DNA of 62,951 nucleotides, the filler included, from Chlamydiia bacterium (lineage in GTDB: Bacteria; Chlamydiota; Chlamydiia; Chlamydiales; FEN-1388), in NCBI GenBank assembly GCA_903848235.1. It is 5 parts of 5 records of this genome, joined end to end, with 100 filler letters (N's around TTAATTAATTAA, not from the genome) between each part and the next. Parts side by side here need not be neighbours in the genome. Positions count along the whole stretch, not along the records: positions 19,298 to 50,746 come from CAINFV010000096.1; 4 more parts are not named here. One strand, written 5' to 3'. Shown here in pieces: positions 12,284 to 39,417 of the stretch. Below the pieces are notes generated by a model. It was not told where the DNA came from. It saw only the letters and a list, made by a program, of their open reading frames with translations, and did not search any database. Position 1 is the first letter of the stretch; every line of letters begins with the position of its first letter. A program made the position numbers and the translations under genes.

Positions 12284-12481
12284 GAGGCTCTGTCCGGCGT
12301 TGATTTTCTGTTAAAGTCCAGTGGAAAAGAATAAGCTGAATCGTTTTGAGTTATTTTTTTTCAGTTCCTACTGTATTCCTTGCCACAAGATCTGTTTACC
12401 GTTCACCCCTCTTTAAGGTAAACGCGTATTTTGAGCCAATGGTGGGCGCGAAAACCCAAGAAGAACACCACCATTTCTGTA

Positions 12482-12645
12482 TATACCTCTTCTTGTTCGA
12501 GAATCGGATTTCACACTTAGAAAAAGCTTCGGGATTCGATCGATCAAAAAGGGACCCATATTGCAATATTGGCCCCTTTTTGATCGTCGAATCGCGAGAG
12601 CTTTTTCTTAAGCGTCAAACCGATTCGTGAACAAGAAAAGGTATA
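12482..12645. repeat. Palindromic MITE-like element, family B (full copy, 164 bp)
   Basis: TATACCTCTTCTTGTTC...GAACAAGAAAAGGTATA terminal inverted repeats; imperfect palindrome along its whole length. Confidence 0.85.
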
Positions 12646-12788
12646 GTTCCATTCGTGCCGAGAATATGTCGAAATTCGGTGTTAAGCGCAATCTTGACGT
12701 TGAGAACTTTTTCTCAATATGTGTAATTGTCGGATAACCCAAGAAGGAGTATATAAAAATTTAGATTTTTCATCTGCGAGGTAGCCCT

Positions 12789-26619: not shown

Positions 26620-26746
26620 TATACCTCTTCTTGTTCAAGAATCGGATTTCACGCTTAGAAAAAGTCCGCAGATTCGATTGGCAAAAACAGACCCGCTACT
26701 AGAAGTAGGGGTTGTTTTTACCGACTCGAAGATGCGGAATTTTTTC
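26620..26746. repeat. Palindromic MITE-like element, family B (partial)
   Basis: Starts TATACCTCTTCTTGTTC..GAATCGGATTTCAC like 12482; centre matches 10199-10276. Confidence 0.85.
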
Positions 26747-26790
26747 GATGGCTGGTATGCGACTTTCAATTGGAAGCGGTATGCATTCCC

Positions 26791-34259: not shown

Positions 34260-34288
34260 TTGTTGACATTTTCCGTCACCGGTATACT
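34260..34288 (+). promoter_or_regulatory. Probable sigma66 promoter for tRNA-Val
   Basis: TATACT at 34283-34288; upstream TTGTTG (17-nt spacing) overlaps TTGACA (14-nt spacing). Confidence 0.5.
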
Positions 34289-34301: not shown

Positions 34302-34375
34302 GGGGTATTAGCTCAGTTGGTTAGAGCGCCACGTTGACATCGTGGAGGTCGGCTGTTCGAGCCAGCCATACCCCA
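34302..34375 (+). tRNA. tRNA-Val(GAC), CCA not encoded
   Basis: Acceptor stem GGGGTAT/ATACCCC; D-arm AGCTCAGTTGGTTAGAGC; anticodon arm CCACG-TTGACAT-CGTGG; T-loop GTTCGA. Confidence 0.97.
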
Positions 34376-34390
34376 ATTGGGTTGACGTCA

Positions 34391-34749
34391 GTCAGCCACA
34401 CCCCTCCCTAAAGGGAGAGGCTTGAGGGGAGAAATCTCCAAGGGCGGTTGACCAGACCCCTCGGGAATCCGAGGAGACGCTTTTGTGGAATGGCAAGGGG
34501 AACCTTGCCGAAATAGGTACTCAGGGATGCGTTGCCAGTCCCGGACTGTGCGGTAGATGTTCATTCTATAGAGAGGTGACTTTCTGAAGGATGTCTACAA
34601 AAACCCACAAAAGACAAGGTCGAGGCGAACGTTATTCAGGTCCTTACGGGCATTTTGGGAGGGGAAACCCTCCCATTTTTAGCACTTAACTTAGGGAGCG
34701 AGGCTTCCTCCATGACCTAAAGGTCACGGTCTTTAGCCTCGTCGAATTG
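34391..34749 (+). ncRNA. ORF-less HEARO/omega-RNA-like element (non-autonomous IS200/IS605, IscB type)
   Basis: 5' GTCAGCC..CCCTCCCTAAAGGGAGAGGCTTG with GTCAGCC pairing to GGTTGAC(CAG); AATAGGTAC..GGGATGC..CCAGTCCCGGAC; GTCGAGGCGAAC; 3' hairpin TTCCTCCATGACCTAAAGGTCACGG; no ORF inside. Confidence 0.8.
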
Positions 34750-34778
34750 ATGAAAGTACAGCAGAGGGAAAAAAGCTC

Positions 34779-35297
34779 TTGAGAGTAAACCACGAGATTC
34801 GAGCTCCACGAGTGCGTGTTATCAATGAGGCTGGGGAGCAACTTGGTGTGCTCACCCATCACGAGGCGATGACATTAGCCCGAGATTCAGGGCTTGACCT
34901 TGTTGAAGTAGTTTCGACGTCAGTTCCTCCTGTGTGCAAGATCATTGACTACGGGAAGTTTCGGTACGATCAGACAAAACGCGAACGAGAAAGCCGAAAA
35001 GCTCAACACCAGGTGAAAGTCAAAGAGGTCAAGATTGGACCGAATATCTCCGAACATGACTTGATGGTTAAAGTGCGTCAAGCGCGAGATTTTCTCGATA
35101 AGGGGAATAAGGTCAAAGTTTCTTGTCAATTTCGAGGAAGAGAGATCACTCATCCCGAAGTTGGTGAGAAATTGATGATGCGTGTCGTCCAAGAGCTGGA
35201 AGATGTATCGATAGTTGAAGCTATGCCGAAGTTTTTAGGAAAGCTTTTGGGATTGGTGCTCGCTCCATCTGGGAAAAAGAAAAAGGTCGGTCCTTAA
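34779..35297 (+). CDS. infC: Translation initiation factor IF-3 (TTG start)
   Basis: RVNHEIRAPRVRVI, LDLVEV...PPVCKIIDYGKF and FRGRE motifs. Confidence 0.97.
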   Translation: MRVNHEIRAPRVRVINEAGEQLGVLTHHEAMTLARDSGLDLVEVVSTSVPPVCKIIDYGKFRYDQTKRERESRKAQHQVKVKEVKIGPNISEHDLMVKVRQARDFLDKGNKVKVSCQFRGREITHPEVGEKLMMRVVQELEDVSIVEAMPKFLGKLLGLVLAPSGKKKKVGP

Positions 35298-35486
35298 CCC
35301 GAAGTTCTTTCTTTTCCTTGCCTGATACCAGGGCTGCAGGATAAGATATTTAGCTTAGATGTATTACCCGTTATACGACAGACGGGAAAAGCATTGATTA
35401 TTAGAAATCGTTTCTGGTGATCAGACCACCGGCGGGAAGGGTGCCGAAAGCCGAAGAATGGTTACCGTGAAAAGGAGATGATTGCT

Positions 35487-35681
35487 GTGCCAAAAATGAA
35501 GACTGTAAAGGCCATCAAGGCAAGATTTCGTGTCACAGGGACAGGGAAATTAAAGCGAAGTCGCGCCGGAAAGCGCCACTTGCTTGCAGGAAAGAGTCAA
35601 AAACGTAAACGTCAATTGAGACAACCGGCAATTGCCGATCATGCTCATGAAAAGGTGTACTCCCTTCTCATGGGAGTTTAA
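35487..35681 (+). CDS. rpmI: 50S ribosomal protein L35
   Basis: PKMKT..A.KARFRVTGTGK, KRHLL; GTG start 9 nt after AGGAG. Confidence 0.96.
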   Translation: MPKMKTVKAIKARFRVTGTGKLKRSRAGKRHLLAGKSQKRKRQLRQPAIADHAHEKVYSLLMGV

Positions 35682-35709: not shown

Positions 35710-36072
35710 ATGGTTAGAGCGACAAATTCAGTGGCGTCCCACAAGCGCAGAAAACGGATGATGAAGCTGGCAAAAGGGTTCTGGGGCGACCGGAAGAACC
35801 ACTTACGGCTTACCTCCGATGCTGTAGCAAAGGCACTCTCAGATAACTATAAGCACAGAAAACTGCGAAAAAGAGAGTTTCGAAGCCTATGGGTGACGCG
35901 GTTGAGCGTTGCTTCAAAGATGCATGGATTGTCCTATAGTTCATTTATCGATGCTTTGAAAAAAGCAGGGTGCCTACTCAATCGTAAGATTCTCTCAGAG
36001 ATGGCAATTCACGATCCTAAGGATTTTGCTGCTGTCGTCAGTCAGGTCAAGCCGCACGCTGTTGTGGTATAA
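35710..36072 (+). CDS. rplT: 50S ribosomal protein L20
   Basis: LAKGFWGDR, KREFRSLW and LNRKILSEMAIHDP motifs. Confidence 0.97.
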   Translation: MVRATNSVASHKRRKRMMKLAKGFWGDRKNHLRLTSDAVAKALSDNYKHRKLRKREFRSLWVTRLSVASKMHGLSYSSFIDALKKAGCLLNRKILSEMAIHDPKDFAAVVSQVKPHAVVV

Positions 36073-39372: not shown

Positions 39373-39417
39373 GTCAACTACCTCTCCCTAAGGGGAGAGG
39401 CTTGGAGAAAATTCTAA
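39373..39417 (+). mobile_element. Miniature IS200/IS605 (IscB-type) end-hairpin remnant
   Basis: GTCAACTACCTCTCCCTAAGGGGAGAGGCTTG is nearly identical to the 5' end of the 34391 element. Confidence 0.7.

Follow-up and report, generated by a model that had tools for sequence, protein, structure and literature searches.

Between tRNA-Val and infC, the Chlamydiia DNA analysed here (62,951 nt, hereafter the window, belonging to genome G000) carries 359 nt without a protein gene, which raises the question of what kind of sequence has come to lie there and how the gene behind it is expressed. From the sequence alone it had been read as a stand-alone omega/HEARO RNA element, and this proved right: the Rfam covariance model of HEARO (RF02033) matches from end to end (model positions 1-211 of 211) and scores 91.7 bits, the gathering cut-off being 83 (E = 2.4e-17). 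Apart from this RNA and tRNA-Val, Rfam gave no match in the window. The window element is a gene-less IS200/IS605 (ISC-type) copy with a complete omega-RNA at an ATGAA target (Table 1), and taken by itself it is an ordinary stand-alone omega-RNA element of a known kind. We consider it probable as a whole that this copy depends on IscB and TnpA provided from elsewhere, that the tRNA-Val promoter transcribes through it into infC, and that it belongs to a family whose left end forms a split ribosome-binding site.

Table 1. Features of the tRNA-Val/infC region (positions in the window)
Feature	Position	Strand	Basis
Likely tRNA-Val promoter, TTGTTG, 17 nt, TATACT (8/12)	34260..34288	+	Hexamers and spacing alike in G001; putative function
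tRNA-Val(GAC), CCA not encoded	34302..34375	+	Rfam match and sequence
Host trailer, 15 nt, would-be guide; predicted hairpin with the 5' strand of P1	34376..34390	+	Aligns with the gap in G001; folding
ORF-less IS200/IS605 (ISC, PATE-like) element, 359 nt	34391..34749	+	Ends set by comparison with other copies; absent in G001
HEARO/omega-RNA scaffold, beginning with the transposon right end (TAAA-loop hairpin)	34391..34635	+	RF02033
Terminator-like stem-loop and T run; likely omega-RNA 3' end, presumably leaky	34656..34680	+	Motif scan
Transposon left end: A/T-rich tract, Shine-Dalgarno-like TAGGGAG, outer stem, inner TAAA-loop hairpin, 8-nt spacer to ATG	34676..34749	+	Comparison with sister copies
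Target/TAM ATGAA (TTCAT on the other strand)	34750..34754	+	ATGAA after 9/10 left ends in G000, ATGAT after 1
10-codon upstream ORF, TGA overlapping the infC TTG; probably incidental	34750..34782	+	ORF reading
infC (IF-3), TTG start, own GAGGG motif still in place	34779..35297	+	ORF reading
rpmI	35478-35681		Downstream of infC
rplT	35710-36072		Downstream of rpmI

Identity and limits of the element

All motifs quoted in the sequence-only reading were found, as was the start 15 nt past the tRNA. Its length of 359 nt and the ATGAAA that follows also hold, but the end had been placed at 34755, too far downstream because this coordinate takes in the target, which begins directly behind the true end at 34749. 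The hairpin noted at the 3' side exists, but is actually the transposon left end with the Shine-Dalgarno-like motif at its foot. Subterminal TAAA-loop hairpins are present at both ends, and the right end reads GTCAGC in the window copy versus GTCAAC in five other HEARO copies of G000. As had been claimed, the element holds no ORF of at least 50 aa on the + strand; a minus-strand ORF of 58 aa (34388-34564) is a mechanical listing. An ORF scan and tblastn with IscB found no IscB ORF directly downstream, and the copy is a stand-alone form since IscB is encoded on contig C268 instead. The fold of 34391-34680 has a z value of -4.28, none of 200 shuffles being equally stable. A target-site duplication is absent: ATGAA does not close the 5' flank in any of six copies, and the GTCA preceding the window copy aligns with host sequence in the congener G001.

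In G001, tRNA-Val and infC are separated by 49 nt and the element is absent. This gap can be aligned to both flanks of the element, so the empty site that had been expected in relatives is found, but its sequence has diverged, and no exact ATGAA stands at the corresponding position. The HEARO model gave no match in G001, though the controls likewise gave none. With an empty locus in G001 and related copies in G000, the sequence is not one that is kept in place in all relatives and has no mobile counterparts, an outcome that the sequence-only reading had named as speaking against it. DNA contigs from four runs of three studies, which show presence only, contained no joint skipping the element; one of them (X2) spans the right junction with at least 31 letters on both sides.

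With HEARO/IscB omega-RNAs, which draw their guide from host sequence on the 5' side (Meers et al., 10.1101/2023.03.14.532601, available text), the window copy shares the full-length model match and the start at the transposon right end, but it has no iscB behind it and is followed directly by a terminator-like hairpin and the left end. The available text on ISC transposons (Kapitonov et al. 2016, PMC4810608) gives a 5'-GTCA terminus, insertion 5' of ATGA and an N|ATGA target for ISC1-1_MA, ISC2-1_HM and ISC2-1_MS, besides subterminal hairpins, ends common to several families and non-autonomous forms; the window family likewise has 5'-GTCA, an ATGA target, subterminal hairpins, ends in common with another family and non-autonomous members. 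The PATE-like elements of G. stearothermophilus are described as consisting of omega-RNA only, without a protein gene, and as being acted on in trans, with TTCAT as a reported IscB TAM (Meers et al., 10.1101/2023.03.14.532601, available text), and the window copy has the absent protein gene, the omega-RNA and the TTCAT side in common with them.

Occupancy of start codons

Across the family to which the window copy belongs, start codons are occupied in Chlamydiota-like genomes. In G000, all ten left ends abut ATGA, in line with the proposal that ATGAAA marks the TAM side, and nine of them open frames of 70-391 codons; the exception is the window copy itself, which is followed by a 10-codon frame and lies 29 nt upstream of the infC TTG. 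When ATGAA sites that disrupt no gene are judged by the same rule, 332 of 1163 (28.5%) pass (P = 9e-5 for 9/10), and the share rises to 279 of 606 (46%) for sites that are likely transcribed (P = 0.005), both being counts of a crude gene caller made for the analysis. Judged by the start label of this caller, five of the ten ends count, against a null of 24%; among the ends missed by the label is TspO, whose Pfam domain begins at residue 13.

An end pattern that includes neither the Shine-Dalgarno motif nor ATG was found in 20 of the order's 401 genomes. With G000, one false match (G019) and six further places left out, the count comprises 18 genomes and 47 of their 53 places. Of these left ends, 43 abut ATGA and 35 open frames of at least 60 codons, and 17 of the 18 genomes have at least one that opens a frame. 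Compared with the 46% null, 35/43 corresponds to P = 2e-6, a value that overstates independence; kin and sister copies in the occupancy counts are not independent. A Pfam match was obtained for 31 of 39 scanned proteins downstream of left ends, with domains beginning at residue 4 (NusA_N), 9 (S6), 4 (PolA exonuclease), 3 (RadC) and 24 (HisRS), and the host genes opened in this way include nusA, rpsF, hisS and polA. ORF-less HEARO copies stand exactly at the starts of rpsF (G219, 348 nt) and nusA (G295, 385 nt), and the congeners G155 and G404 have empty sites at the rpsF/nusA loci. Insertion thereby parts nusA and rpsF, which are of a type that is normally essential, from the upstream sites native to them. 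The same ends occur in records titled Chlamydiales or Chlamydiae.

The left end as a candidate split ribosome-binding site

Read on the mRNA strand, the left end consists of an A/U-rich tract, an AGGAG-type motif, a 6-bp outer stem round the TAAA hairpin, a spacer and AUG. A Shine-Dalgarno motif, then a hairpin, then AUG at what would be a working distance is the layout of a split ribosome-binding site, and on balance we take the left end to be likely such a site, which would replace the displaced one and keep the host gene translated. A pooled set of 57 de-duplicated chlamydial-group ends among the matches listed, with some records grouped by likeness, has a spacer to ATG of 8 nt in 41 cases, and pairing with the anti-Shine-Dalgarno core reaches -5 kcal/mol or lower in all 52 ends with full flank; 54% of the called genes of G000 reach this value. 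The standard core was presumed for these energies because the 16S 3' end was not found in the assembly. Across 18 chosen ends, three of the six outer-stem pairs show changes in both partners, with pairing in 98% of cells, the stem model being drawn from the same 18 sequences, kin included. Of 38 folds, 7 leave the outer stem less than 0.8 paired; the motif averages only about 45% unpaired, and GGAG is able to pair with the internal UUCCUCC loop of the element. TnpA, too, needs the hairpin and the spacing. For the T4 genes 25 and 38, a hairpin between Shine-Dalgarno and AUG is described to shorten an over-long spacing (PMC3014915, available text); there the genes are fixed ones of a phage and the loop takes up 22-27 nt, whereas in the family about 44 nt would be looped out, on a mobile end that has this role by prediction.

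Across taxa, the link of the motif with start occupancy is mixed. The genome-wide scan for ends comprised at least 119 loci. On viral contigs (29 loci, 20 distinct with ATGA, among the matches listed), long frames are opened by 6 of 11 ends with the motif and by 6 of 9 without it, and because motif-less ends of phage contigs are found at starts no less often, its function is only proposed. For 21 other prokaryotic ends, again among the matches listed, the figures are 9/13 and 3/8. Of 28 ends in one Clostridiales genome, 27 carry the motif and 8 open long frames, the spacer being longer there, and in Opitutae motif-less ends are found at starts in both loci (each among the matches listed). In G000 itself, a second family with a similar end lacking GGAG opens long frames at none of seven ends (Fisher P = 0.0004 versus 9/10, P = 0.095 versus the 28.5% null); these elements may carry a reversed gene. 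As this family is present in several copies in the same genome, GGAG is dispensable for such an end type.

A proposed role of the start codon as target

In the mechanism that we propose, TnpA acting in trans would have moved the window element. ATGAA is often a start codon, and an element inserted there would come under a host promoter; it depends on one, since the guide is encoded beyond its 5' end. The dependence of omega-RNA guides on transcription from outside has been reported, as has an orientation bias of IscB elements (10.1101/2023.03.14.532601, available text). The left end would then supply AGGAG, the hairpin, about 8 nt and AUG, so that the host gene stays translated. At the window locus, transcription from the tRNA-Val promoter would likely pass through the element into infC, and a leaky terminator would give rise to both free omega-RNA and read-through mRNA. 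Once the element is excised, the vacated site would be cut by IscB provided in trans, which would favour restoration of the element. For the family, we see an even chance that the start codon is itself the target: ATGAA would be recognised by TnpA as well as by IscB, the guide would be the host 5' UTR including its Shine-Dalgarno sequence, the TnpA-binding hairpin would double as a portable split ribosome-binding site, the essential genes nusA, rpsF and hisS would be spared, and ORF-less copies would add a leaky terminator for omega-RNAs that act in trans.

A competing explanation, to which we give less credit but which has to be taken seriously, is a bias of survivors only. Insertions at ATGAA inside genes would have been purged, many of the remaining transcribed sites would be start codons, GGAG would belong to the DNA end or be carried along as a passenger, and the host genes would be translated weakly or by other means. 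The higher null for transcribed sites speaks for this bias, yet the occupancy both in G000 and in the relatives still exceeds it, with independence overstated in these P values. The motif-less viral and Opitutae ends at starts and the Clostridiales copies that carry the motif mostly away from starts (among the matches listed) also speak for it, as does the reported orientation bias; the multi-copy family without GGAG, however, indicates that the motif is not needed for that type of end, and nusA and rpsF are cut off from their native upstream sites although they are normally essential.

IStrons spare the host gene that they enter by splicing out, whereas the rescue proposed here would take place at translation initiation, and no intron family has an Rfam match in the window. 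Like the window copy, IStrons are IS200/IS605 elements (review PMC13565253, available text). If the start codon is indeed the target, the arrangement would be a translation-level counterpart of IStron splicing, and if the left end works as a ribosome-binding site, one DNA end of 60 nt would combine a transposase site with a translation start and the ATGA target would gain a biological reason. Gene callers would then mis-assign 5' UTRs at such loci. While the kind of element is already known, docking at start codons with a replacement ribosome-binding site would be the new part, for which no description was found in the literature searched. In the available text of the ISC paper (PMC4810608), "start codon" and "ribosome" occur 0 times, whereas here ATG is mostly a host start codon and the end bears a Shine-Dalgarno-like motif; that of Meers et al. 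describes neither such docking nor a replacement site for PATE-like elements and uses "start codon" once, in an unrelated context.

Partner proteins and the state of the family

The assembly of G000, which is 93% complete, contains six HEARO matches, five of them above the cut-off. Four copies are ORF-less (window, C45, C192 and C168; 352-374 nt), and the two others precede a 440-aa IscB on C268 and an internally deleted IscB on C146; a further IscB on C4 has a frameshift near its end. The C268 protein possesses RRXRR and HNH domains and has IscB structures as its best solved relatives, and its alignments make RuvC-I D, RuvC-II E, HNH H and RuvC-III H..D readable, which we take to be the catalytic positions. 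The omega-RNA in front of it is identical to the window copy at 235 of 264 positions, and this intact-looking IscB is the likely cognate of the window omega-RNA. The search for iscB and tnpA that had been suggested thus led to an IscB on C268, but to TnpA only as three fragments at contig ends, one apparently frameshifted. The left end beside the TnpA fragment on C66 has the same architecture of stem and TAAA loop.

Fragmentary TnpA, deleted and frameshifted IscB copies, the altered right end (GTCAGC instead of the GTCAAC of five sisters) and a guide predicted to self-pair could together be taken to mean that the window copy is a dead remnant, an immobile and decaying deletion product that is tolerated through read-through transcription. 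We think this rather unlikely: the full-length model match lies above the cut-off, both ends are intact, and the TnpA ends fall at the contig breaks of an assembly that is 93% complete. Moreover, near-identical ORF-less copies are located at unrelated sites of G000.

The IscB genes on C4 and C146 run into the 3' part of a mini-element omega-RNA and its left end, and on C169 the start of a mini-element lies directly behind an iscB-like 3' end; these arrangements are signs of nesting or recombination among copies. Five copies (window 34730-34737, C146, C168, C192 and C282) share a left-end variant that is one base longer and altered at the presumed DNA-guide position, all of them still at ATGAA. 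The guide-pairing scheme of such left ends does not account for this variant.

The tRNA-Val trailer as a proposed guide

It had further been proposed that the tRNA promoter would transcribe the element and that tRNA 3' processing could release an RNA with the trailer as its guide. In the full form of this model, RNase Z would yield a precise omega-RNA with a 15-nt guide, which would load IscB in trans and actively guard the locus. Such a model, which we consider doubtful, is possible in principle. The tRNA encodes no CCA, G000 has an RNase Z homolog just under the cut-off (288.5 versus 292.95 bits, model positions 2-300 of 302), the cognate IscB would be that of C268, and the 15-nt trailer fits the guide lengths of 14-16 nt with which two IscBs are reported to work best (PMC13180657, available text). 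The score of the likely tRNA-Val promoter lies below the scan threshold of 9/12. A tRNA is found directly upstream in only one of 33 HEARO loci (six in G000 and 27 from 8 of 25 genomes searched), namely at the window copy, and a recurrent layout of tRNA and omega-RNA with a guide predicted to be free did not emerge. The trailer contains a second GGUUGAC, which in the predicted fold pairs with the first seven scaffold bases (p about 0.98), that is, with the 5' strand of P1. Adding the trailer lowers the probability of P1 from 0.50 to 0.01 in a 290-nt fold and from 0.91 to 0.00 in a 100-nt fold, the latter being below all 200 random flanks. As a target in G000, no match of at least 8 nt followed by ATGA was found for the trailer, the best having four mismatches in 15. 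Since the natural flank of the C168 copy causes a similar drop of P1 and IscB could refold the RNA, the predicted self-pairing would lower the activity but leave room for it. The guide derived from the tRNA trailer looks like a by-product and probably has little activity.

Expression of infC

Because the insertion lies 29 nt ahead of its start codon, infC retains its own ribosome-binding site, and translation rescue by the left end is not needed here. Outward promoters in left ends were not enriched (3/25 at a score of at least 9/12 versus 3.1 expected), and with a terminator-like hairpin just upstream, expression of infC would have to come by read-through. This stem at 34656-34680 had not been reported in the sequence-only reading. 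Two terminator-like sites are seen in the region where 1.5 are expected by chance, and the strict form of the terminator is present in four of eight ORF-less elements and in none of seven with full IscB. Translational coupling of the 10-codon ORF to infC was considered as a special feature and rejected; TTGA opens most infC genes in relatives, so the ORF is probably incidental.

At the infC loci of 29 relatives, a tRNA lies at most 115 nt away in three, 1.1-1.4 kb away in 13 and nowhere within the locus in 13. The gaps between tRNA-Val and infC in G003 and G040 (115 and 27 nt) are too short for the element. The suggestion that the element is the leader of infC is correct as to position, but what lies there is an insertion absent in G001 and not a conserved leader. 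A domesticated regulatory leader of infC-rpmI-rplT, to which this position, the terminator-like hairpin and the ORF overlapping the infC start might point, is highly improbable in view of the empty locus in G001, the short gaps in G003 and G040, the lack of an Rfam leader match in the window and a TTGA overlap that results from the infC start itself. The stretch of 1.1-1.4 kb between tRNA-Val and infC in 13 of the 29 relatives is missing there in G000, G001, G003 and G040; by position, it is probably a thrS-like gene.

Other repeats and elements

A 45-nt remnant consisting of a right end only (window 39373-39417) lies exactly before the ATGAA start of pheS, with GGAG about 10 nt upstream of the ATG, and is absent in G001. 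On C37, a frame opened by ATGAA is preceded by an almost identical 45-mer, and C102 has a related one.

The second IS200/IS605 family has left ends on C149, C76, C173, C67, C228, C57 and C197, and right ends on C107, C141, C50, C80, C179, C30, C133 and C33. It has the same right-end start as the window family and an ATGA target, carries no Shine-Dalgarno motif, and is mostly unassembled in its interior. By eye, the interior looks TnpB-like in reverse, a label based on reading a motif, since PF01385 (TnpB) has no match in G000. The copies on C57 and C197 are palindromic minis with a double left end.

Another dispersed repeat, about 160 nt long and containing palindromes, has no Rfam match in the window (12478-12646 and 26657-26782) and recurs on C87, C67, C174, C17, C186 and C196. 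Group II intron-like reverse transcriptase ORFs are located on C20 and C23, the one on C20 next to an IS200 tnpA fragment with a frameshift. The same CCTAAAGG hairpin also marks a third end type, of which four near-identical copies lie at contig edges (C52, C182, C201 and C247).
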